DNA from: Anaerolineae bacterium
Lineage (GTDB): Bacteria; Chloroflexota; Anaerolineae; VGOG01
Direction: 5' to 3'
Assembly: GCA_034431315.1 (NCBI GenBank)
Contig: DAOUDK010000119.1
Span: forward strand, 28,873-92,872
Length of the DNA: 64,000 nt
The notes beneath the pieces are model-generated. The model saw only the letters and a program-made list of their open reading frames with translations, did no database searches and had not been told where the DNA came from. Position 1 is the stretch's first letter. Each line of letters opens with the position of its first letter. This document shows, in pieces, positions 1-14,300 of the stretch. The translations under genes were made by a program, and so were the position numbers.

Positions 1-1862
1 CCGGAGTCATCTATGGCGATGGCAGAGACAGAGTTAGACACTAACCCAGAATTCGAGGTGTCGTAGGTCGTCCAGGTACTCCCATCGAACTTGCTCAGCC
101 CGCCCCCAGTGCCGAACCACTTGTTCCCTTCCCCATCAATGGTGATGCACCGGACATAGTTACTCGCCAGACCAGAGTTTGAGGTGTTGTAGGTTGTCCA
201 GGTAGCACCATCGAACTTGCTCACGCCGTTGGAGGTACCGAACCACTTGTTCCCCTCCTGGTCTATGGCAATGGCGTTGATAGGATTGTACGCCAATCCT
301 AACTCTACAGCATAAACAGGTGTGCCCGCAAAGACATCCTGCCGTAAAGGTGGGGCGATTTTAATAGAGCCGGACTCATGCAACGAGCGGTAGCTGATGT
401 GTGGATACTCGCCCTCATCCAGGGCTAGGGAGGTGTAGCGGCGCTCAAAGCCGTCCAGCCCTGGTTCCACGGTCTCGATGTGCCAGCCAGAGGCGGCCTG
501 GTAGGCGTACTTCAGGTCGCTGTTGGTGTAGTCATAGTAGCTGATGTGCGGATACCCGCCCTCATCCAGGGCCAGGGAGGTGTCCCTGCCGACATTCCCT
601 TCGCTGTCCACGGTCTGGATGTGCCAGCCGGAGGCGTCCTGGTAGGCGTACCTCAGGTTGCCGTTGGTGCGGTCGTAGTAGCTGATGTGCGGATACCCGC
701 TCCCATCCAGGGCCAGAGAGGTGTACGTGCCTCCCTCGCTGTCCACGGTCTGGATGTGCCAGCCGGAGGCGTTCTGGTAGGCGTACTTCAGGTCCCGGTT
801 GGTGCTGTCGTAGTAGCTGATGTGCGGATACCCGTTCCCATCCAGGGCCAGGGAGGTGTACTCGCCGACAATTCCCCCGCTGTCCACAAACTCGATGTGC
901 CAGCCGGAGGCGTCCTGGTAGGCGTACTTCAGGCCCCCGCCGCTGCTCCCGCCGCGATAGCTGATGTGCGGATACCCGCCCCCATCCAGGGCCAGGGAGG
1001 TGTAGCTGCCCCCCTCGCTATCCACGGTCTCGATGTGCCAGCCGGAGGCATCCTGGTAGGCGTACTTCAGGTCGTAGTTGGTGCGGTCGCAGTAGCTGAT
1101 GTGCGGATACCCGCTCCCATCCAGGGCCAGGGAGGTGTACTTGCCGACATCCCCTCCGCTGTCCACGGTTTCGATGTGCCAGCCGGAGGCGTCCTGGTAG
1201 GCGTACCTCAGGTTGCCGTTGGTGCGGTCGTAGTAGCTGATGTGCGGATACCCGCTCCCATCCAGGGCCAGGGAGGTGAACAGGCCGACATCCTCCTCGC
1301 TGTCCACAATCTGGGTGCGCCAGCCAGTGGCGTCCTGGTAGGCATACTTCAGGTCGCGGTTGGCGCTATACGACCTGTAGCGATAGAAGGTGGGATCGTC
1401 CCCGAACATGAAGTAGCCGGATGCAAGGGCAGCATTAGCTTCCTCTCTGCTGGCGAAGCCTACGGGGACCCATTCACTCCCAACCGGGGTATCTTCGGTC
1501 ACAGTAGCGACCTGGTCTCCCCGCTGGCTGGTGTTTTCAACGGTGTAGGTCGTCCAGTTCTCCCCGTCGAAGACGCTGACGCCCTTGTTAGTACCGAACC
1601 ACATGTTGTCTCCGTCCGCAGCCATGGACAGGACGTTATCGGACACTAATCCTGAGTTTGAAGTGTCGTAGGTCGTCCAGGTGCCTTCGTCAGTGTGGTG
1701 GAGGTTAGCGGCCTGGGATGAAGAAGCCAGCTTGCTACGAAGAGCACGAGGGAGCCCACGCTCAAGGGTGGTCAGAAGGGCCACCAGAAGAACAGAGGCC
1801 ACCATGAAATACAGCAATCTGGTGAGTATGGCAGTGATCCACTTGATAGTCGGCTTAATCAT
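1..1862 (-). CDS. Partial (C-terminus runs off window start) membrane-anchored/secreted beta-propeller repeat protein; ~40-aa tandem repeats ([47 protein letters not shown]) flanked by Reg_prop-like motifs ([19 protein letters not shown]..W)
   Basis: Own reverse-strand translation from ATG (fwd cat 1860-1862) with GGGAGG 7 nt upstream; N-terminal TM/signal segment; 120-bp DNA tandem repeats 480-1400; no stop before window edge (hence absent from ORF track). Confidence 0.55.
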   Translation of the reverse strand, partial: [620 protein letters not shown]

Positions 1863-3680: not shown

Positions 3681-3927
3681 TCACTACAACGAATTGAGAA
3701 AGGAACGAATTTCCTACGGAGAAACCAGGTTTTTCCCCTACTTGAATGGGCGCACTATTGCTTTTGAGGCTCTCCACGGTGCGGAAAGTCATATCTTCTT
3801 CAGCCAAAAACCTGGTTTCTGAACCCCGTCGCCGAAGTCGCCAGTCCAGCGTCCGCTTGGAGCTTGCAGGAAAGCGATTCCACTGCCAAGTTGCTCTCAA
3901 TTCGTTTGTTTCTAAATTCGCTGTAGT
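3681..3927. repeat. MITE-like palindromic intergenic element, full copy 1 (end A CACTACAACGAATTGAGAAAGGAACGAAT at left, inverted end B at right; internal GAAACCAGGTTTTT / AAAAACCTGGTTTC inverted module)
   Basis: Ends match copies at 24779-25012 (opposite orientation), 27233-27300 (minimal), 32847-32895 (solo end B); fills entire intergenic gap between 3664 and 3938. Confidence 0.7.
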
Positions 3928-3937
3928 TTCGGCTCAC

Positions 3938-6514
3938 CTACGGCCGCCGTTTATAAATGGTCACATTCCCCTGCTGGAAAGCCACGTCCATGAAGCGGTC
4001 GAATTTGGCCAGGGCCGCCGGGTTGTACTTGCCTCGCTCCAATGAGCCCACATAGACATAGGTTATACCATATTTTTCAAATAGCGTCAAGATACGCTGG
4101 ACGTCCGTGCTGCTGTAGATCGCGTTTATGTCAGGCTCGCGGCGGCCTGGCTCGTCGTAGTTTCCCCGCCACTGCAACTCGTGGCCGCCCCAACCCAACA
4201 CCGTGGGCAGTCCCGTGCGGCTGGAGACCCGCGCGTACTCGGTGAAGGAGCCGCCCGTGACCTCCAGGATGACCGGCGTGCCCGACACGTTTTCGTTGAG
4301 CCATTGGACGGCGGCATACTCGTCGGGGGAATGTTGGCGCACCCAGGCCAGGCCATCCAGGGTCGGCTGGGGAGCAAAGCCACCGGCCTTGTCGAACCCC
4401 GCGGCCAGGGGGTAGACCATGCCCAGGACGACGAGCACCGCCACGCCCACCAGGAACAGCGAGCGGCCCAATCCTTTCGCCTTTTCGATGACGTAATACA
4501 CCCCGTAGGCACTGGCCAGAGCCAGCAGCACCCAGGCCTGATAATAGAACTTGAACACGGTGTTCATGCGAGTGCCGAAGGTGTCCCGCAGGTAGACGAA
4601 CTCCACGCTGAGGGTGAGCACCAGGCCGGTGGCGATAATGAGCAACACGAAGAGGGTGCTCGGCTCGGCGATTCTCCCCTCACCTTTCCCCGCTCGCAAT
4701 CTCCGCCAGAGCAGGGCCACGACCCAGGCGATCAGCAGGGCCAGGAAGAGCCAGGTCCAGGGGTTGCCAAGCCGGATGGTGATGAGCTTTCTGATCAGCG
4801 AGGCCCAATCGGCCCCGCCGATCTGCTGCCGCACCATCTCGTTCGCCAGGATGCCTCGCAGAAAGGCCTGCCCCCCGGCGGTGAGCGTGACGAGGGCGAT
4901 GGATCCCAGGATGGCCAAAGGTGGCAAGAGTATGGTCCAAAACAGAGTCTTCAGGCCGCTACTCACCAGCTTCTTGCTCTCGACCTCGACTCTCAGCCGT
5001 TTCGTCGCCAACGCTACAAAGCCAATGACCACGAACACGAACGGCCCGAAAAAGATCAAGTACTGGTGCAACCTGGTAGGGTTGAACAGGTTGGGCAGGA
5101 TGCCCCCGGCCTGCGACTGGAAGCCAACGTAGAAGGGCAGGTAGAGGAGGCCGCCGAGGAGCGCCAGGCCCACGACTGTGTAAACGACGTCCCTCACCAA
5201 AGCCCAGTTGATTTTGCCATAGTACCCATAGCGGTGCAGTCCGTAGGTCACCGCCACCAGGAGCAGGTAGATGGGGAAGTCCCAGGTGTTGAGGAAGGCC
5301 AGTGCTCCCAGGCAGAGGGCGTGGAGGAGGGGATGTTGGAGGTTGGAAAATGGAGATTGGATATTGGAGATTAGAGCTTGGATATTGGATATTGGAAGTT
5401 GGAGGTTGGAGGTTGGAGTTTGGAGTTTGGAGTTTAGTATATTTAGCGCCAGGGCCAGGGCCAGCAGGACGAAGGGCAGGGCTAACACGTGGGGGTGCAT
5501 GTCGCCTAGCATGAAGCTGAAGAAGGGGAACTCGTCAATGACCTCCACGCTGTTGCCCAGCAGGTCCTTGTCGTGGATGACGCGGGAGGCGCGCCACCAC
5601 CACCATCCGCTGCCGAGATCGAACCACTTCCCAGTGACCTGCCCCTTGGTCACCAGCTCTTTTATGTCGAGCCAACTCCAAAACCCGGCCGAGCCGAGCC
5701 CTTTGGAGTACAGCACCTCGAAGATGCCTTCCAGGTTGCCGACGATGGCGACGAAAAGGGGACCCAGGAGGGGAACGAGGTAACGAGTTGACGAGTTAAT
5801 GAGTTTTCCTCGTTGCCTCGTTACCTCGTTGCCTCGTTGCCTCGTTACCTCGTTGCCTCGTTGCCTCATTGCCTCGTTGCCTCGTCCCTCAATGAGATTG
5901 TACACCAGCCCGTAGGCCCCCGTCACGGTCAGGGCAAACAGGAGCGTGATGCCCAGGTTGAAGGCGACGGCGGAAGCCACGCCCGACAGCTTGGTGAGCA
6001 GGGCCATCATCAGGTAGCCGAAGTAGTAGTAACTGATGCCGAAGCCGGAGAGCCAGGGGTCGTGGGGAGGGAAGGTGTCGCTGCGCAGGATGGCGTTGAG
6101 GAAGGCGAACTCCATGGGCTTCTCGGTAAGCATGATCTCAGGGCTGTAGGCTCGGAAGAGGGCGAAGAGGAGGAAGGCCAGGGCGAAGAGGGCTTCGTTG
6201 GCGATGACCAGGCGCCTGTTCCCACGCAAGAAGCTGGCTATCCCCGCCTCTCGCTTTCCCCTGGAGTAGAACCACCAGGAGCAGACGGCCACCACCAGGA
6301 TCGAGAAGACGATGCCGCCCCAACTATTGCGCAGGAAGCCGAAACTGGCCCCGATCCAAAGGACATAGCTGGTCAGGAGGATGCCCAGCGGCTTGGCGAA
6401 GGCGTAGCCCCTATCGGGCAGGTTCTTGAACAGCCGATAGGTAAGGGGCAAGGCCGCCAGGCCAAGTATCTCAATTATGAACCACCAAATCAAAACAGGA
6501 ATCAAAATTGCCAC
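3938..6514 (-). CDS. DUF2298-type large polytopic membrane protein (paralog of C-terminal half of 11388-15902 protein)
   Basis: 858 aa, >15 predicted TM helices, conserved C-terminal YVYVGSLERGKYNPAALAKFDRFM shared with 1504-aa paralog (YIYVGQLERTVYDAAGLAKFDEMV). Confidence 0.55.
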   Translation of the reverse strand: MAILIPVLIWWFIIEILGLAALPLTYRLFKNLPDRGYAFAKPLGILLTSYVLWIGASFGFLRNSWGGIVFSILVVAVCSWWFYSRGKREAGIASFLRGNRRLVIANEALFALAFLLFALFRAYSPEIMLTEKPMEFAFLNAILRSDTFPPHDPWLSGFGISYYYFGYLMMALLTKLSGVASAVAFNLGITLLFALTVTGAYGLVYNLIEGRGNEAMRQRGNEVTRQRGNEVTRQRGKLINSSTRYLVPLLGPLFVAIVGNLEGIFEVLYSKGLGSAGFWSWLDIKELVTKGQVTGKWFDLGSGWWWWRASRVIHDKDLLGNSVEVIDEFPFFSFMLGDMHPHVLALPFVLLALALALNILNSKLQTPTSNLQLPISNIQALISNIQSPFSNLQHPLLHALCLGALAFLNTWDFPIYLLLVAVTYGLHRYGYYGKINWALVRDVVYTVVGLALLGGLLYLPFYVGFQSQAGGILPNLFNPTRLHQYLIFFGPFVFVVIGFVALATKRLRVEVESKKLVSSGLKTLFWTILLPPLAILGSIALVTLTAGGQAFLRGILANEMVRQQIGGADWASLIRKLITIRLGNPWTWLFLALLIAWVVALLWRRLRAGKGEGRIAEPSTLFVLLIIATGLVLTLSVEFVYLRDTFGTRMNTVFKFYYQAWVLLALASAYGVYYVIEKAKGLGRSLFLVGVAVLVVLGMVYPLAAGFDKAGGFAPQPTLDGLAWVRQHSPDEYAAVQWLNENVSGTPVILEVTGGSFTEYARVSSRTGLPTVLGWGGHELQWRGNYDEPGRREPDINAIYSSTDVQRILTLFEKYGITYVYVGSLERGKYNPAALAKFDRFMDVAFQQGNVTIYKRRP
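5325..5437. repeat. Hexanucleotide (TTGGAG/TTGGAT)n microsatellite-like repeat inside CDS, in-frame (encodes SNLQ/SNIQ repeats on minus strand)
   Basis: Direct reading: ggaggttggaaaatggagattggatattggagattagagcttggatattggatattggaagttggaggttggaggttggagtttggagtttggagtttag; paralog at the same protein position has a short unrelated loop. Confidence 0.7.
5774..5888. repeat. Tandem 9/24-bp repeat (cctcgttgc / cctcgttac) with an inverted arm, in-frame inside DUF2298 CDS (encodes GNEVTRQR x4)
   Basis: Direct reading; left arm gaacgaggtaacgagttgacgagttaatgag is reverse complement of the tandem units; 40-aa insertion relative to the 1504-aa paralog. Confidence 0.7.
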
Positions 6515-6637
6515 TTTCGTCTCCTACTCCGCATAGGGATGAAAATCTCCTTGCTCAAAGCTCAAGTGCGTCAAGGCGCACTCCCAAGAGTCAGCTTTCT
6601 AGCCGACTTGGGCTTTCAGCCGTAGCTGCCCTACGAC

Positions 6638-7834
6638 TCAGTCTGTGTATTCTGGTTCGTTGATGAATTTCACTAATGGATGAAACGCTTGCATGATACG
6701 GACCACCTCATCAACCAAAGAGCGTCCTTGGTCTTTCCGAGACAGTTCGAGAGCTGAGTCTCTGTCAATTCGTCGTGTCACGGTCAGGTCGGGCAAGGGT
6801 ACTTGTTCCAAGAGCGTCTCGATGTAGCCAAATCCATGCGGCCCTAATTCGGGATCTTTGAGGTAGTCTACTTCCAGTCTAGCAATGCGATGGAAGTCAT
6901 AGAGCGATGCTTGTCTCTGTTTTCGTTCTCCCACTTGGATGAATAGTTCATCAAATAGTTCATCAGGCAGTAGCCTTGAAATAATCTCTCTAAACACTTG
7001 TTTGTCCTGGCGTATTTTCTTTCTCAGTCTAACAATCGCAGGTTTCAGTTCCACGTTGACAAAAACGTCAAGCGCGTAGGCTTTTAGCGATACAGTCTGG
7101 TGAGCCCACTGTCGGTATTTTCGCTTTCCAGGACCAAAGGCGACCCAGCACTCTTCACCTTTGGAACGAAGAGTGCCCACGTCATAGTCTTGGTAGAACG
7201 AATCGAAGTCCCACAGCCGGGCCTGGATCTTTTCGGCAAAAGACTGCACCGTGTCACGCACCCATCGCCTGGTGTCCTGGTCATCGTGAGTGACAAAAAA
7301 GTTGAACATCCCCTCCTCAAGACCAGTAAACTCTGCCAGTATCCGTTTAGGGCCTTTCTCTGGTGTTGCTATCTCCGTACCAGGGGGTGGTAGCTCTTCC
7401 CGATCAGGGGGTAGCTCTTCCCGACGTTCCATCCCCACCTGGATAGCCTTCACTAGCCGTGTCCAACCATCCTCTTCAAACAGGTTCACCCACTGGAATT
7501 TACGCAGCCTTTCTGGCACCTCACAATCTTCCAGCCGTACTGGAATCAGATAGATATCGTCCTCCAACTTCTCCAGCCAGATATTCAGCGCATCCTCGAT
7601 TTCCTTCTGAAGGAAACCTCTTTTCTTGACCGACTTTGCCGACAGACACGCCAGAAAGAAATCAGATCGCTGGATAGCTTTCTGGATACAAGACTGCCAT
7701 ATTTCTCCCGGTAGGATGTCCTTTTTGTCCATCCAGGGTTTGAACCTCGCATCGGATAACTTTTGGTGAAGATTCTTTACCTTTTCTTCATCCTCTCGCG
7801 CATAGCTGAGAAAAATCTGAGTCATTGCTTTCAC
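6638..7834 (-). CDS. TIR-domain protein (N-terminal ~135 aa TIR, C-terminal ~260 aa domain of unknown function)
   Basis: N-terminus MTQIFLSYAREDEEKVKNLHQKL...WMD...I..G..W...I..AI..S..FLACLS..S..K..F..EI fits bacterial TIR hallmarks; GTG start overlaps TGA stop of upstream gene (GTGA) with GGAGG 7 nt upstream; GC visibly lower than flanks. Confidence 0.65.
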   Translation of the reverse strand: MKAMTQIFLSYAREDEEKVKNLHQKLSDARFKPWMDKKDILPGEIWQSCIQKAIQRSDFFLACLSAKSVKKRGFLQKEIEDALNIWLEKLEDDIYLIPVRLEDCEVPERLRKFQWVNLFEEDGWTRLVKAIQVGMERREELPPDREELPPPGTEIATPEKGPKRILAEFTGLEEGMFNFFVTHDDQDTRRWVRDTVQSFAEKIQARLWDFDSFYQDYDVGTLRSKGEECWVAFGPGKRKYRQWAHQTVSLKAYALDVFVNVELKPAIVRLRKKIRQDKQVFREIISRLLPDELFDELFIQVGERKQRQASLYDFHRIARLEVDYLKDPELGPHGFGYIETLLEQVPLPDLTVTRRIDRDSALELSRKDQGRSLVDEVVRIMQAFHPLVKFINEPEYTD

Positions 7835-9081
7835 TTGAGATCCTCCCGTCCAGATGTCTCAGAGAATCCTTTTCCGTGTCTCTTCAGGGACGAAGATGAA
7901 AAGGCCTGAGCGCTTACTATTTCTTTATGGATAACGGGCAAATAGATTCTATAGGGGGCCTGACACGCAAAAAGCAGGTATAGACCTTGACCCCAGAATT
8001 GAATTGTGTCATGAGGGATCAGGTTGTACTGCTCCACATCGTCGTAAAACCCTGTCCCCACAGAAACATCCAAGACAGTGCCATCTCCATCCACCTTCGC
8101 CTTAGCACCCTGGGCAATCTTGCTTGCCATGCCCAGGTACTCGGAGCTACAGTATTCCTCTTGAATGGCCTTCCTGATCCCATAGCCGATGGCCAGGGCG
8201 CCGGAGGTCTCCAGATAGAAGTCCGTCCGGTCAACGACGGTGTGCCAGAGACCGGATTCGTCTTGGTAGGGAGCTAATCCTCCAGCCAAGCTCTCCAGAG
8301 TCTCGATCAGCTCCCCGCGCTTGAGATGGTCGGGCGGGAGGAAGGTGAGGACCTCGGATATGCTCAGGGCCGCCCAGCCGTTTCCCCTCTGCCAGAAGGC
8401 GTTATCAAAGTGGCTGCCCGTGCTGGGCTGGTAGGCATGGTAAAAGAGGCCGCTCTCGTGCTGGAGGTGATCGGTGTAGACCGTGATCTGATGCACCGCC
8501 TCCTCAATGTAGGTGGGATCTCCCGTGACGGAGCTGAGCCTGGCGAGGAAGGGGCAAACGGCCAAGAGGCCATCCACGATTATAAAATCTCCCTTCTCCG
8601 GGTCTATGCCGATGAACTCCCCCTCGGGCCCCCGAGTGTGGTTTTCGATGAGCCAATCGGCCAGCCTGACCGCCTTGTCCAGGTACCCCTGCTTGCCAGT
8701 CTGTTCATAGACTATCAACAATGGCGCGCCAGATGTGAGGTCCACATAGCGGTCCTCTGGGACCTGGTCCAGAGTTCTATCGAGCCAATCCTTAACGAAA
8801 TCAAAGTATCTTTCGTCGTCGGTGACGCTCCATGCGGACAGGAGTCCGTAAGCCGCCAGCCCTTCCCCCCAGTTGAACTCAGGTAGCCCCATCTGCATCG
8901 TCCTCTCCGCCACCTTGATGATGGTGGGGTCGATGCAGGGCGTAGCTGTAGGGGCATCGGTTTTTACTATCGGCTCGAGGATGATCGGTTCGCTGGCCTG
9001 GCTACCTGCTGTCCTTACCCCAGTGCCAAGCAGAGCTGTCAATACAACTATTGTCGTAATTAGTAATGCTACTCTCTTCAT
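7831..9081 (-). CDS. Secreted glycoside hydrolase family 88/105-like (unsaturated glucuronyl/rhamnogalacturonyl hydrolase, YteR-like)
   Basis: 416 aa, N-terminal signal peptide, motifs DWLIENHTRGPEGEF, NAFWQRGNGWAALSISEVL typical of GH88/GH105 (alpha/alpha)6 barrel hydrolases. Confidence 0.55.
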   Translation of the reverse strand: MKRVALLITTIVVLTALLGTGVRTAGSQASEPIILEPIVKTDAPTATPCIDPTIIKVAERTMQMGLPEFNWGEGLAAYGLLSAWSVTDDERYFDFVKDWLDRTLDQVPEDRYVDLTSGAPLLIVYEQTGKQGYLDKAVRLADWLIENHTRGPEGEFIGIDPEKGDFIIVDGLLAVCPFLARLSSVTGDPTYIEEAVHQITVYTDHLQHESGLFYHAYQPSTGSHFDNAFWQRGNGWAALSISEVLTFLPPDHLKRGELIETLESLAGGLAPYQDESGLWHTVVDRTDFYLETSGALAIGYGIRKAIQEEYCSSEYLGMASKIAQGAKAKVDGDGTVLDVSVGTGFYDDVEQYNLIPHDTIQFWGQGLYLLFACQAPYRIYLPVIHKEIVSAQAFSSSSLKRHGKGFSETSGREDLK

Positions 9082-9327
9082 GGCTTTTTCACTCTAATCT
9101 CATAGGATTTATCTCTTGCGCACTCAACCATCGCTCGCCACTTGTCGTCCTCTTTTGTGTCTGATCATGCGCCTAATCGGACGCTAGCTTTGTAGCCCTA
9201 CGACCTCCTGATCCGATTGCCTGCCACGAAGATCAAACACCTCAAGCCCGCCGTTCTCCTCGATTAGTTTTAGGATTTCTTCCCTGGTGTACTCGCTCAA
9301 GGGTGCCTCCTTTCGGAAACGACGAAG

Positions 9328-9795
9328 TCATTTCCACAGCTTGCCGAGCACCCAGCAAGCAAACCACAACACGCCAAAAAATAGAGCGGCATAAAAGCCA
9401 GCTATGGCGAGGTACCCAAGAATGTCGGCATCGATCAATATCCCAAGGGGGAGCAGCAGTACAAACAGAAGGCCACCTATCACGGCCAGTGTGCCAAACA
9501 ACCTGGCAAGTCGTTTGATCATTTCCTGGAACCGCTGCGTTGGTGGTTCGGCCTTTTGCTCTGTCGGCTGTATTTCTGGCTTTGGCGGTGGCTCGACAGG
9601 TTCGCCCTGTATCACCTCAACACCCACAGCCTCCCTGCGACTCAATATCTCATTGAGCCGTGCAAGGGCATCTATAGCCTCTCGATTGGTGGCATCCAGC
9701 GCCAGCACTTTCTCAAAGTATTCACGAGCGTACTCAGGATAGCCCGCTTCTAAGTCCTTGTGGCCAAGTTCAAGCAACCGCTCAATTTCGTCCAT
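9328..9795 (-). CDS. Hypothetical protein, N-terminal TPR-like helical motif plus C-terminal transmembrane helices
   Basis: 155 aa; N-term EIERLLELGHKDLEAGYPEYAREYFEKVLALDATNREAIDALARL; tandem paralog of 9814-10356. Confidence 0.4.
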   Translation of the reverse strand: MDEIERLLELGHKDLEAGYPEYAREYFEKVLALDATNREAIDALARLNEILSRREAVGVEVIQGEPVEPPPKPEIQPTEQKAEPPTQRFQEMIKRLARLFGTLAVIGGLLFVLLLPLGILIDADILGYLAIAGFYAALFFGVLWFACWVLGKLWK

Positions 9796-9813
9796 CGTTA
9801 GCTTCTCCTGCTC

Positions 9814-10356
9814 TCACTCTCCACTAGGCCGATGTAGGCCGCCGTCGTCTTGGGGTCGCTGTGGCCCAGCATCCGCTGCACCTGCAGGAGCGTCGCGCCG
9901 TTGTCGTGTTGCATAGAATAAGCCAAAACCAACACCAAGGCACAACACAAACCCGACTCCTGCAATGAGTAATCCTGTTAGGACATCGGATGTTAAAGGT
10001 TCGCCAGGAGTAAAGAAAAGCTCGAACATTATCCCTGTACCAGAACACAGTACCCCGATAAACAGGATTGCTCCTAGACCAAAAAAGATACCCCCGAGTA
10101 TCCGCAGCAGTAGTTTAGTCACGTTCACCTCACTTTCCCGCCCACGTTTATTTACATCTGGTTCGCCCCGTACCGGCCTAACAGGCACCGCTGCCCTGCG
10201 GCGCAATTCATCAATCCGTGCAAGGGCATCTATGGCCTCTCGATTGGTGGCATCCAGCGCCAGCACTTTCTCAAAGTCCTCACGGGCCTGCTCATACTGA
10301 CCTGTTTCAAGTCCCATGCAGCCATAATCAAGTAGTCGCTCAATGTCGTCTGTCAT
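9814..10356 (-). CDS. Hypothetical protein, paralog of 9328-9795 (TPR-like N-terminus + TM helices)
   Basis: 180 aa; N-term DIERLLDYGCMGLETGQYEQAREDFEKVLALDATNREAIDALARI nearly identical motif to neighbour. Confidence 0.4.
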   Translation of the reverse strand: MTDDIERLLDYGCMGLETGQYEQAREDFEKVLALDATNREAIDALARIDELRRRAAVPVRPVRGEPDVNKRGRESEVNVTKLLLRILGGIFFGLGAILFIGVLCSGTGIMFELFFTPGEPLTSDVLTGLLIAGVGFVLCLGVGFGLFYATRQRRDAPAGAADAGPQRPQDDGGLHRPSGE

Positions 10357-10374
10357 CTTGCACTCCTTTATCCT

Positions 10375-10470
10375 CTCACCCTGTAAATCCTCGTCCTCTC
10401 ATTCTCATAAACCACTTCCAACTCCCCTCGCCGCACCATCTCATCGAACTTGGCCAAGCCGGCGGGGTCG
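10375..10470. repeat. Direct repeat copy 1: degenerate duplicate of the 3' end (last ~30 codons) of the 1504-aa GT-C/DUF2298 gene
   Basis: 10397-10470 matches 11417-11490 with 3 mismatches in 74 bp; looser similarity extends ~20 bp further left. Confidence 0.75.
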
Positions 10471-10733
10471 AACCACTGATGCCGCTGAGAGAATACTGAA
10501 GGCACTGAGGGGAGCACCACGTTCAGTGGCCTCAGTGCTGTTCAGTGCGGTCAGTGATTCCAGCTTGGCTGGCGTCAGGCCAGTCCGCTGAAAGCACCAA
10601 AGCGGGACGCTGTTTGATCATCGTCAGATCGGTGAACCTGCGTCATTATATCATACGCCAGGTGAAATCGCAATATCCAGCCCAGTTGTTCTCAGGCCAG
10701 ACACCCATTTTCCCAAAATCCTCGAACTATGCT

Positions 10734-10739
10734 ATAATC
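10734..10739 (+). promoter_or_regulatory. -10 box TATAAT upstream of hicB, followed by AGGAGG RBS
   Basis: gctataatcttcttcAGGAGGtgaacgaaATG. Confidence 0.4.
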
Positions 10740-10759
10740 TTCTTCAGGAGGTGAACGAA

Positions 10760-11095
10760 ATGACCGACAAAACCCCGTCTTTCCGCTGTTACGCCTACCG
10801 CCGAGACCCAGACCACTATATCGCTTATTGTTTAGACCTCACTCTGATAGGAGAAGGAACAACGATGCGGGAGGCCATTGGCGACTTGGAAGAGGCAATG
10901 TTAGGCTACCTCGAATCCGTCTCCGATTTAGGCTGGGAGAAAGACCTCATTCCACGTCGAGCGCGTCCCGGCAGGTGGGTGGAGTTCTATAAGCTCTTCC
11001 TGATCCACATCCTCAGAGCCCTTTTCACCGGCGAACTCGGCAACTTCCAGACCTTCCAAGAGTATTTTGAGGATAGGGGCCTGGTCTATGCCTAA
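10760..11095 (+). CDS. hicB: HicB-family antitoxin (UPF0150-like)
   Basis: FRCYAYRRDPDHYIAYCLDLTLIGEGTTMREAIGDLEEAM matches HicB N-terminal fold pattern; stop overlaps ATG of hicA (ATGCCTAA). Confidence 0.55.
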   Translation: MTDKTPSFRCYAYRRDPDHYIAYCLDLTLIGEGTTMREAIGDLEEAMLGYLESVSDLGWEKDLIPRRARPGRWVEFYKLFLIHILRALFTGELGNFQTFQEYFEDRGLVYA

Positions 11096-11380
11096 AAAGT
11101 ACCCTCCTCTTACCCCCGCCGAAGTCATTGCTATTCTCCTCGCCAGGGGGTTCGTCCTCCATCGCACCAGTGGAAGCCATGCCCACTATCGAGGCACTAT
11201 ATCAAAGGCGTCAAATGCCTGGTGACCGTAGATGTGCACTACAAAGACTTCGACGTGGAACGCATCAAAGACATGATTCAACAAGCCAATCTGTCCCGCG
11301 AGGAATTCTACGGCAGCACCAAAAGGACCGCTAAAAAGATCAACCTCATCGCCCCAAAATATCCGATTCCTCTCAAGTAG
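11088..11380 (+). pseudogene. hicA: hicA toxin gene disrupted by an 11-bp duplication (cactat-CGAGGCACTAT-atc near 11190) causing frameshift and premature stop at 11223-11225
   Basis: Frame 1: MPKKYPPLTPAEVIAILLARGFVLHRTSGSHAHYRG..*; C-terminal HicA motif (HYIKGVKCLVTVDVHYKDFDVERIKDMIQQANLSREEF) continues in another frame to 11380. Confidence 0.6.
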
Positions 11381-11387
11381 TCCCCCC

Positions 11388-14300
11388 TTACCCCCTCACC
11401 TGATAGATTCTCACCATCTCATTCTCATAAACCACCTCCAACTCCCCTCGCCGCACCATCTCATCGAACTTGGCCAGGCCGGCGGCGTCGTAGACGGTGC
11501 GCTCTAACTGGCCCACGTAGATGTAGGAGACGTGCAGCTCGCCGATGAGCTGGAGGGCGCGGGAGATGTCGGGGGTGTTGAAGAAATCGCGCGCCTTTCC
11601 ATCGCGCTCCCCTACCTGCGAAGCGTAGCGCTGCTCGTTCTGGTGAGCGCCCAAGAAAGTAGGCAGCCCCGTGTAAGTGGCTACGCGCAAGCCTCCCTCG
11701 CGATAGTAAGGTATAGCAGCCTCGGCGACGACGGGGGTGCCCTTGACGTTGGCTATCAGCCACTGGAGGGCCTGGTAATCGTACTTCAGCTCGATGCGGT
11801 TGTTGTCAGGCCAGGTGTAAGAGCCGACGGTCATGAAGGCCATCCCATCCAGGGTGCCCACGGGCGGCCTATCGCCAGGGAAGCGATCGTTCACCCGCGC
11901 CGGGGTGAAGACGAGGGGATAGAGCAGGCTGGCGAAGGACAACAAGACCAGGCCAGCAGCCCAGACTCGCCGCTGGCCCGCTGACTGCCAACGCCTCATC
12001 CTGGCCCATAGACTGGGCACGGCCACCGCCGCAGCGATGCCCAGCATCACCCAGACCTGGATGTAGAACTTGAAGATGGTGTTCATGCGCCACCAGGTCT
12101 GGTCCCCGCCCAGGTGATCCTTCAGATAGACCACCTCGCAGCCCGCCGCCACCAGCAGCCCGGTGAAGACCAGCAGGGAGACGAAAAGCTCCTCAGGCGA
12201 GGCATCGTCGCGCAACAGGAGCAGCACAGCTCCAACGACCAGGGGCAATGCAAAGGCCAGCACCCAGAACTTCAGGACAGCCAACACCACCGCCAGCAGC
12301 AACACTCCTCCCAGGCTGTAAATGGACAGGGTATAGTTCGACGTCTGCCGATGCACGAGAGCCTGGTAGATCTCAGCCAGGTGGGGCAGCACCTCCCACC
12401 GTGCTAATAGCACCCGCACAAAGCGCAGCACCCCCAGCCTGGCCCGCTGTCGCACCAACTCCACCAACAAGAAGGTGATGACGATGAACAGGAAAAAGCC
12501 CCAGACGGTGAGGAAAGCCGCCAGGTCCGTCCGTCCTCTGGTGATGGCCAGGCCCAGGCCAACGTCGAGGGTCTGGTAATGGGCGAAGAAGGGCCGGTAG
12601 AGCAGCAGGCTCAGGCCGCCAACAGCGATGGTCGAAATCGCGGGCCAGGCGAGCTTCCATTTACCCTGAGCCAACCTCTCTCGAAGGACGAAGGCGATAG
12701 CGATGAGACCTAAATAGGTCGGGAGGTCCCAGGTGTTGGTCACCGCCAAGGCCCCCAGGCAGATGGGGAGCGAGAGATAGCGAACCGCAGTCGCCAGAGG
12801 TTCGCAGCCTGCCGCCTCTCGCCGCTTCCCGTCCAAGACGATCTCTAGCGCCAGGGCCAACACCAGGATGGTGAACGGTATCCCTATCATGTGGGGGTGC
12901 AAATCGGCGAAGAGGAAGCTGAAATAGGGGAACTCGCTGATGGTGCCGGGGATGACCCGCGTGCGGCCGAAGTAATCCAAAGGAGGCATGGCCTGGCCCC
13001 GGATGACCTTCAACAGCCCCGGCCAGGCCCGCACCAGCCCCTCCAGGCCGGGGATGCTGCTCCTGAAGCCAGAGCCGCCTATCCCACCCAGCCGGTCGGC
13101 CAGGTGCACCATCCCGTCCAGGTTGCCCAACACGGCCACGAAAACCGCCGCCAGCACTCCGGTGAGGACGGGCCTCCGCGCCCGCGCCAGATTGTACCCC
13201 ATACAGAACACGTTCCCCACCGTCAGGGCAAACAGCATCGGGATGGCCAGGTTGAAGGCCAGCGAGGGCATGATGCCCGTCAGCTTGATCACCAGGCCCA
13301 CGATGAACTGGCCGTAGTAGTAATAGTTGATATACCCACCGGCGAAGTAGGGATCGTAGGGCGGAAAGTGGGGGCTCTTGAGGATGGCGTTCAGGAAGGC
13401 GAACTCCATAGGCTTCTCGCCGCCCAGCCAGGGCTGCCACAGATCAGGATTGAACATCCGAATGACGACGAAAAACAGGAAGGCCGCAGCGAAGAGAGCT
13501 TCGTTGAGCAAGATCAAACGCTTGTTATCGCGCCAGAAAGCAACCATCGTCTCTCTGTGGCGTCGGAAGAAATAGAAGGAGAGGACGGCCAGAAGGGCCA
13601 GGGCCAGTATGATAGTGGGCAGACTGTTTCGCAGCAGGCGGAGGCTGGCCGAGATCCACACCAGGTAGGCCACGATTATCAGGCCCAGGCTCTTGGCCAG
13701 GATGTAGCCCCGGTCCGAGAGATGACGGAAGACGACGAAGGTCACTGGCCAGGCAGCCAGTCCCACCAGCACCACCGCCAGCCACCAGAAGATGACGGCG
13801 AACAGATGATAGCGATTGGCCAGGCCGTTCCAGCGGAAGTCGTCAATGACGGGAAGCTCATCCACTGGCCCATCGAGGAGCAGCGTCTTGCCCTCTTCGG
13901 ATTCGCTGGGGGGCGACGCAGGTCGAGAAGTAGCGCCCCAGAAGCGAGCCAAGAGCGTCGGCGCGCCCACGTAGCCGCGGATGGCCCCCTCCCAGCTATC
14001 GCCCAGCAGGGAGTCCCATTCCGCCCCGCTCAGCTCCCGCACCTTCTGGAAGATGATGGGCTTGGGGTGATCGTAGACCGTGAAGCTCTCGTCGCTGGCA
14101 TCGTCATTGAAGACGAAGGGGCCCAGGCGAGGGTAGGTAGTGAACTCAGCCACCTTCTCGAATCCCAGTTCTCCGGCGAAGAGAAGCTGATAGTACCTGG
14201 TGCTCATGGGATAGCGCTCCGGCAGGTTGGGGACGGCCCCGTACAGGCGGTTGGTGGACAGGATGACGTAGTCCGCCTCGCTCAGGCGAGAGCGTATCTG

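Follow-up and report, generated by a model that had tools for sequence, protein, structure and literature searches.

A TIR domain joined to a YktB-like domain in a variable genomic island of an Anaerolineae bacterium

We analysed a 64,000-nucleotide (nt) stretch of DNA from an Anaerolineae bacterium (assembly GCA_034431315.1, contig DAOUDK010000119.1, positions 28,873 to 92,872 of the forward strand; hereafter the window) and, within it, a single gene whose product joins an N-terminal TIR domain to a C-terminal domain predicted to have the fold of Bacillus subtilis YktB. This TIR-YktB-like gene is intact and horizontally acquired, and it probably encodes a rare single-gene defence protein (Table 1). 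By analogy with known TIR effectors, the protein could be a stand-alone, two-module switch of the defence type, with a TIR NADase placed under a YktB-like sensor, a reading for and against which we find the balance of probability even. An identical protein is encoded in the European Nucleotide Archive (ENA) contig scaffold_78.

Domain architecture of the TIR-YktB-like protein

It is established that TIR proteins of bacteria serve as immune effectors that cleave NAD+. The preliminary description of this DNA had assigned the first ~135 residues of the protein to the TIR superfamily and had singled out a glutamate in the segment FLQKEIEDAL as a candidate catalytic residue, and both proposals were borne out. 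In a profile search, the N-terminal part matched TIR_2 (PF13676) over its full length (profile positions 1-121 of 122) with a score of 98.5 bits, the cut-off being 28, and PF01582 was likewise matched above its own cut-off. The glutamate, E78, aligned in a phmmer search onto Glu77 of the TIR-APAZ chains 8z92_E and 8ifk_A of SPARTA, the short prokaryotic Argonaute defence system, in which the Glu77Ala substitution abolishes the NADase activity of TIR (PMC9097488). Judged by its sequence, the 398-residue protein is thus a TIR superfamily member by both profile and catalytic residue, and by analogy it may be expected to act as an NADase.

SPARTA, TIR-SAVED, retron-TIR and ThsB proteins share with the window protein the N-terminal TIR_2-type domain and the position of the catalytic glutamate, as well as the general plan of a TIR effector followed by a C-terminal regulatory or sensing region. 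PADLOC models for TIR proteins associated with prokaryotic Argonaute (pAgo), SAVED, retrons and ThsB all matched the protein over its TIR part only, the best being pAgo-associated models at 59 and 51 bits. The Aga_TIR-PNTD models of SPARTA were matched only at profile positions 4-122 of 430, with no APAZ or pAgo found in the window. The SAVED_TIR model of CBASS (the cyclic-oligonucleotide-based anti-phage signalling system) was matched at 14-97 of 404, with no SAVED domain in the window and no cyclase nearby, and the retron-TIR model (NF042941) at 43.3 bits against a cut-off of 600, with no reverse transcriptase in the window; both matches fell in the TIR part. For Thoeris, ThsB models gave E values of 1e-4 to 0.06 and the NCBIfam type III ThcB4 model 28.8 bits against a cut-off of 220, and there was no ThsA-like neighbour. 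Because the defining partner domains and genes proved absent on testing, we rejected membership in SPARTA, Thoeris, CBASS TIR-SAVED and retron-TIR systems.

For the remaining ~260 residues the preliminary description had recognised no motif. Indeed, no defence model matches this part: PADLOC and NCBIfam matched the TIR part only, and the C-terminal part had no match in either library or in PHROGs. That picture can now be refined to a YktB fold shared with a sizeable unannotated family. At the sequence level the similarity is faint, with a sub-threshold match of the window protein to DUF1054 (PF06335; E value 0.05, scoring 14 bits where the cut-off is 27), a best score of 20.7 bits among its relatives, sub-threshold matches in 15 of 59 of them, and a weak match to the sequence of PDB entry 3mqz (E value 0.39). 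An AlphaFold2 model of the C-terminal domain, built from a 70-homologue alignment, reached a predicted local distance difference test score (pLDDT) of 90.2 and a predicted template modelling score (pTM) of 0.85. Because Foldseek agreed with this model on the YktB fold, we conclude that the C-terminal domain has, as modelled, the YktB/DUF1054/UPF0637 fold. With 14-16% sequence identity to YktB/DUF1054, it is a structural homologue too divergent for Pfam-level membership. In the model, a near-invariant W-x-A-F-G-P motif and H245 sit with the family-invariant residues on neighbouring strands of the sheet, and this cluster is a possible binding site.

The YktB/DUF1054 fold is common in Firmicutes, and crystal structures of it have been available since 2005. 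Its known members (B. subtilis YktB, PDB 2a8e; 3mqz) are stand-alone cytoplasmic Firmicutes proteins of ~210 amino acids (aa), whereas here the domain is fused and island-borne; the fold is part of none of SPARTA, CBASS, retron or Thoeris systems. The TIR-YktB-fold architecture appeared in none of the libraries or literature searched, and the protein would seem to combine a known type of effector, TIR, with a regulatory domain that is new. The preliminary description had called the whole arrangement undescribed, including a link to a neighbouring GH88 hydrolase; the TIR-YktB combination is indeed rare, being found in three near-identical sequences and, in a pattern scan of species-representative genomes, in none of those scanned, whereas the hydrolase does not belong to the architecture (see below).

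The two domains are separated by a low-complexity linker containing an in-frame 21-bp tandem duplication, reported previously and confirmed here, with repeat copies at 7386-7403 and 7407-7424 that are 94% identical and yield REELPPD twice (7382-7423). This duplication is polymorphic, being present in one close relative (P0002) and missing from another (P0001), and it lies in a region modelled with low confidence (pLDDT about 52-66 for residues 1-30 of the C-terminal model). In addition, we found a second, 12-bp duplication, which occurs in neither P0001 nor P0002 and coincides with the lowest-confidence block within the YktB-like domain (pLDDT 78).

Relatives of the YktB-like domain and a possible role in defence

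Using residues 140-398 as the query, a search of a database clustered at 90% identity found 77 homologues, and an exhaustive profile search returned 925 representatives at E <= 1e-3, 161 of them at E <= 1e-30. Among the 77, only P0001 and P0002 carry a TIR domain (88% and 81% identical to the window protein over the C-terminal domain). About 70 are ~420-aa proteins without any Pfam domain that begin with a different module of ~190 aa, in which E28, P112-D113 and E126-x-K128 are invariant. The predicted order of secondary-structure elements around this E..PD..ExK motif (a-b-b-b-a-b, where a is helix and b is strand) is that of PD-(D/E)xK nucleases; weak PDDEXK_4 matches were obtained in 2 of 59 members (best E value 0.0015) and a weak cap-snatching endonuclease signature in one. 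As this evidence is mixed, we hold the module to be a PD-(D/E)xK nuclease as a probable assignment only. The top 150 matches of the exhaustive search contained no third kind of N-terminal module, all being fragments or proteins of the nuclease-like type. A ~255-aa C-terminal extension, or a shorter, divergent stretch in place of the first ~75 residues, is seen in some members, namely P0096 (675 aa) and a group that includes P0161, P0166 and P0175.

The window protein is tied to these proteins through its C-terminal domain, which is 39-69% identical to that of non-TIR members (E values 5e-97 to 1.5e-23) and retains all of the invariant residues (Q, T, N, E and P). Homology to the nuclease-type proteins starts at 'AEFTGLEEGMF'; the E..PD..ExK module is not present, and TIR stands in its place with the low-complexity linker at the junction. 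The family of PD-(D/E)xK-like plus YktB-like proteins (P0006-P0077, and P0078 onwards) is itself undescribed, appearing in none of the libraries or literature searched. Its named hosts are metagenome-assembled genomes of Anaerolineae, Caldilineaceae, Planctomycetia and Phycisphaerae.

Four long genomic contexts of family members (L005, L006, L008 and L009) had no conserved partner gene, and the open reading frames (ORFs) immediately downstream of family members gave no PADLOC matches. The L006 context is defence-island-like, with NERD, a PLD/DrmC-like gene, an SNase+LTD PADLOC candidate, IS1595 and an integrase, and L008 is mobile-element-like, with a resolvase, ArdC, a Schlafen-AlbA_2 gene and ISL3. 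In L009, where the family gene lies at the contig end, only transporter genes and unannotated ORFs were seen.

For defence proteins it is typical that one conserved C-terminal domain is combined with either of two N-terminal modules, both potentially toxic. The strongest argument for a defence-type switch is that a single conserved C-terminal domain is found behind either a nuclease-like or a TIR module, with no fixed partner and in mobile, defence-like or variable contexts. In such a switch, the YktB-like domain would hold TIR inactive until a trigger was bound, which could be an invader-derived protein, a nucleic acid or a small molecule. Binding would lead to assembly of a TIR oligomer and cleavage of NAD+ through Glu78, and the depletion of NAD+ would arrest the infected cell. 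Oligomerization and a defence phenotype are, like the sensor role, parts of the scheme that we infer.

New defence systems are usually recognized through new sensor modules attached to TIR proteins. More broadly, the YktB-fold domain might define a new family of immune sensors that act as single proteins and differ in the killing module they carry, which would be a TIR NADase here but a PD-(D/E)xK-like nuclease in most other members; we put this forward tentatively, as somewhat short of an even chance. If true, it would give the DUF1054/YktB/UPF0637 fold its first functional handle, as a ligand- or invader-sensing switch. The occurrence of the same domain behind two potentially toxic modules in mobile or defence-like islands yields a concrete hypothesis, open to test, in which the fold would act as a switch that binds a trigger.

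Several points weigh against a defence role. The literature on YktB, DUF1054 and DUF2461 gives no functional data and no link to defence; because the fold comes with neither a known function nor such a link, a sensor role for it is pure inference. The TIR-YktB architecture is known from just three metagenomic sequences, which are near-identical. No model in PADLOC, NCBIfam or Pfam matches the family members. The L005 context is mostly housekeeping, albeit with an MqsA-like antitoxin nearby, and the window is otherwise housekeeping too. Some bacterial TIR proteins make signalling nucleotides rather than deplete NAD+. A further weak point is the usual N-terminal module, whose PD-(D/E)xK fold and nuclease identity are both predictions.

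This last point bears also on the idea that these proteins form a nucleic-acid-sensing, restriction-type system, in which the YktB-like domain would bind DNA or RNA, for instance modified or foreign, and the usual module would cut it as in type IV enzymes, with TIR depleting NAD+ in the window protein. The nuclease-like E..PD..ExK motif of the usual module and the single-gene, partnerless organization of the family, as in type IV enzymes, fit this idea. No DNA-binding motif was identified, however, and the idea is a more specific form of the defence switch rather than an exclusive alternative to it; we consider it rather unlikely.

The rarity of the TIR-YktB architecture could instead mean that the gene is a recent, non-functional chimera, with a TIR module joined in frame to a piece of a nuclease-YktB gene, the whole now decaying. 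Apart from the restriction of the architecture to three near-identical sequences, the polymorphic, low-complexity linker and the two in-frame tandem duplications are as such an origin might leave them. The ORF is nevertheless intact in all copies. In pairwise comparisons among the three versions, the ratio of nonsynonymous to synonymous substitution rates (dN/dS) was 0.31-0.33 for the whole gene, at dS values of 0.12-0.23, with 0.10-0.13 for the TIR domain and 0.36-0.40 for the YktB-like domain; the neighbouring GH88 gene gave 0.27. Because dN/dS is low, the family-invariant residues are kept and both duplications are confined to the linker and the low-confidence loop, the gene is under purifying selection and does not look like a decaying chimera. 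It is also the constant element amid turnover of its neighbours (see below), and we regard a non-functional chimera as very unlikely. The regional values describe a constrained gene with a faster-evolving C-terminal part, as would be expected of a sensing surface in a defence switch.

Origin of the TIR module and the junction with the GH88 gene

The preliminary description had noted a G+C content (GC) of ~50% in the gene against ~60-65% in its flanks. Consistent with this, the gene has the lowest GC of all long ORFs in the window (0.487, and 0.519 at third codon positions (GC3), compared with means of 0.596 +/- 0.036 and 0.724 +/- 0.098 for the 39 long ORFs). A search with just the TIR domain gave 142 relatives at E <= 1e-8, among them short Anaerolineae TIR proteins that are 60-84% identical, many of them 70-84%. 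These relatives are 140-240 aa long and have varied tails, including coiled-coil or TPR-like, EAD7 (PF19960), cold-shock, FGE-sulfatase and helix-turn-helix types. The DNA of the TIR module is 82-87% identical between unrelated contigs and keeps a GC of 0.48-0.50 in host DNA of 0.55-0.61, which together identify it as a shuffled, compositionally distinct module. In Anaerolineae-type contigs (L016, L017 and L019), and among the proteins P0222-P0341, the low-GC module stands behind many unrelated genes, such as those for a vWA protein, an ABC-3 permease or a ribosome hibernation factor, usually in the same direction as the preceding gene, after a short gap and with differing C-terminal tails. 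An origin from the pentapeptide-TIR gene adjacent to it in L001 was rejected, as the two TIR sequences are only 31% identical. The gene probably arose by module exchange, in which this widely shuffled TIR module, bringing its leader and ribosome-binding site along, took the place of the PD-(D/E)xK-like module that usually stands in front of the YktB-like domain.

The relatives of the TIR module raise the question of partners encoded elsewhere. Kaur et al. (2020) described TIR effectors linked to effector-associated domains (EADs) in vWA-MoxR and GTPase conflict systems of multicellular lineages, Chloroflexi included; EAD7 is a known adaptor of TIR effectors in such systems, and the genes for adaptor-coupled effectors may lie apart from those of the core system (PMC7159879). 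The window protein might accordingly be one component of a multi-protein conflict system, with the YktB-like domain as an adaptor docking TIR on a sensor such as a vWA-MoxR or STAND NTPase, or with TIR making, as ThsB does in Thoeris, a signalling nucleotide for a distant effector. The Chloroflexi-type lineage and the modular shuffling are shared with the EAD-coupled effectors (PMC7159879), several of the closest TIR relatives are TIR-EAD7 proteins, the closest of all (P0222) is encoded directly after a vWA gene, and ThsB-type models match the TIR domain weakly. In the TIR-YktB-like protein itself, by contrast, neither PF19960 nor any other EAD was detected, and what follows TIR is a large domain of the alpha/beta type rather than a small adaptor. 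There is no vWA, MoxR or GTPase gene nearby, no vWA, MoxR, STAND, ThsA, SIR2 or pAgo was found among the scanned ORFs of the window, and relatives in the YktB-like family have no conserved neighbour. A multi-protein system seems to us distinctly unlikely, and a stand-alone protein preferable.

The neighbour that had attracted attention was the gene upstream. It had been described as a GH88 hydrolase, an identification that the Pfam match sustains, and as translationally coupled to the TIR gene. The signals adduced for coupling are real: the GTG start codon (7834-7832) shares the tetranucleotide GTGA with the TGA stop of the hydrolase gene (7833-7831), a 4-nt overlap, and a GGAGG site precedes it by 7 nt. 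The two genes also occur together, at 93% nt identity, in L002, L003 and L020 (the hydrolase being 94% identical in aa sequence in L002/L003), and the flanks encode envelope glycosyltransferase-like proteins. From this one could envisage a functional pair that couples a TIR response to the state of the envelope or of glycans.

The junction itself argues otherwise. The ~98 nt upstream of the TIR gene (7835-7932) are homologous to a stretch of L019 that there forms, in frame, the linker between the N-terminal domain and TIR in protein P0230, reading SSSSPKRRGKGFIEPSIGESQ-VKA. DNA alignment revealed a 2-nt indel between the window and L019 that shifts the frame of this stretch; the protein similarity of the leader is seen as SSSSLKRHGKGFSE versus SSSSPKRRGKGFIE. 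Read as the tail of the hydrolase, the same leader gives SSSSLKRHGKGFSETSGREDLK, ending at the TGA within GTGA. This tail has a TIR-like GC of 0.472, as against 0.566 in the hydrolase body, and the GH88 Pfam match stops at residue 374 of 416, before it. In L001, homology with the window starts just 29 nt before the TIR start codon, and in both L001 and L022 the same pair of DUF2298 flanks encloses the TIR gene, with GH88 absent. The TIR module is found elsewhere after the unrelated genes named above, and GH88 occurs in none of the examined contexts of YktB-like family members.

We therefore rejected functional coupling on the grounds of the out-of-frame leader, its GC and the arrangement in L001 and L022. 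As far as the sequence can tell, the GTGA overlap is a rearrangement scar or by-product and the hydrolase a neighbour rather than a functional partner, and a working pair is in our view highly improbable. The proposal of a coupled TIR and secreted hydrolase thus did not survive: the TIR gene is constant in the island and the GH88 gene varies, the opposite of a 'TIR+GH pair'. More generally, a low-GC TIR module with its own leader and ribosome-binding site behind many unrelated genes shows that apparent translational coupling can be an insertion scar. What makes the locus valuable is chiefly the family that it exposes and the idea that it offers of what the YktB fold might do, rather than any connection with GH88.

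The variable island and other features of the window

The TIR-YktB-like gene lies in a low-GC island (0.45-0.58, compared with 0.60-0.65 in the flanks). Its envelope-glycosylation flanks were correctly recognised in the preliminary description, being DUF2298/PMT_2 membrane proteins, and the island between them is variable. In the window it contains a 114-aa ORF, two paralogues with TPR and transmembrane segments, the remnant of a pentapeptide gene, the GH88 gene and the TIR-YktB-like gene. In L002, L003 and L020, GH88 and TIR-YktB genes at 89-93% nt identity are followed by an extra secreted-type protein of 472-606 aa before DUF2298. In L001 and L022, between DUF2298 flanks that are 90-93% nt identical, the island holds a lipoprotein, a pentapeptide and a pentapeptide-TIR gene, the TIR-YktB gene, an antitoxin-like ORF and a ParA-like ATPase gene; the L022 island has, in other words, two TIR genes. 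Of all these elements, TIR-YktB alone is shared by the three variants, and the island is a gene-turnover hotspot in which this gene has been retained. Should the defence reading be wrong, a shuffled TIR module in such a hotspot would still be documented.

Table 1. Position of the TIR-YktB-like gene and associated features in the window (strand: -, minus;., not assigned)
Feature	Position	Strand	Details
TIR-YktB-like gene	6638..7834	-	398 aa, GTG start, TGA stop; from the ORF list
TIR domain, residues 7-127	7454..7816	-	Pfam TIR_2 5.1e-28; PF01582 TIR 8.4e-07
Codon of E78, candidate catalytic glutamate	7601..7603	-	in 'FLQKEIEDAL'; from alignment
Low-complexity linker, about residues 136-170	7325..7429	-	holds the 21-bp in-frame tandem duplication
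YktB/DUF1054-fold domain (modelled), residues about 174-392	6659..7315	-	invariant Q246, T247, N260, E262, P348
Second in-frame tandem duplication, 12 bp x2, DELFDELF	6942..6965	-	Tandem Repeats Finder, 100% matches; loop of the YktB-like domain
GGAGG ribosome-binding site	7842..7846	-	7-nt spacer to GTG; read from the sequence; kept in L001, L002, L016
Leader travelling with the TIR module	7835..7932	-	in the window, last ~33 codons of the GH88 gene, out of frame
GH88-family hydrolase gene	7831..9081	-	PF07470 1e-63, residues 67-374 of 416; signal-peptide-like N-terminus
Conserved ~60-nt element with hairpin AGTGCG-N6-CGCACT	6535..6593	-	immediately downstream of the gene
Variable low-GC island, 4.9 kb	6515..11387	.	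between two conserved DUF2298/PMT_2 genes

In L022, the antitoxin-like ORF of 103 aa follows the TIR-YktB gene (5268-5579) and is succeeded by the ParA/MinD-like ATPase gene with a KGGVGKTT Walker motif (5859-6617); these two hint at a plasmid or mobile-element origin of part of the island. The remnant in the window, at 9161-9299 upstream of GH88, is the start of a pentapeptide-repeat gene (…TREEILKLIEENGG…) and is homologous to sequence by the pentapeptide genes of L001/L022 and to a short ORF after TIR in L002/L020/L028, further evidence of rearrangement in the island.

The ~60-nt hairpin element has a single copy in the window. It follows the gene in L002 (about 1950-2000), and in L001/L022 it stands both before and after the TIR gene (3772-3832 and 5614-5664 in L001), one of these copies being the 3' end of the antitoxin-like ORF, which ends in …VRLGALEL and a stop codon. 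Candidate explanations for the element are a terminator, a remnant of a gene, and a cassette boundary or site of recombination. Given the single window copy and the coincidence with the 3' end of the antitoxin-like ORF, a gene remnant is more likely than a cassette boundary or recombination site.

Elsewhere in the island, the adjacent ORFs at 9328-9795 and 9814-10356 encode paralogues of 155 and 180 aa with a weak TPR-like N-terminal part and a hydrophobic C-terminal segment, and their 5' DNA is 73-79% identical (repeats D1 and D3). A 121-nt direct repeat with 83% identity (10350-10470 and 11370-11490), the second copy of which overlaps the 3' end of the gene for a 1504-aa DUF2298 protein, brackets a ~1-kb segment with the 114-aa ORF (10751-11095, plus strand), which has no family match. 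The segment looks like an insertion that duplicated the end of the gene.

Two repeat-rich regions lie outside the island. At 466-1367, a 141-nt tandem repeat of 6.4 copies (84% matches) falls inside a 389-aa ORF (480-1649, plus strand) that has no Pfam match and whose GC3, at 0.55, is lower than is typical, which makes the true coding strand or frame uncertain. In protein, the repeat unit could correspond to 47 aa. The 858-aa DUF2298 protein (3938-6514) has, at about 5000-5600, three copies of RQRGNEVT and several of ISNIQ/SNLQ, where there is a sharp local excursion in GC skew, and a PISNIQ-like motif is also present in its 1504-aa DUF2298 paralogue.

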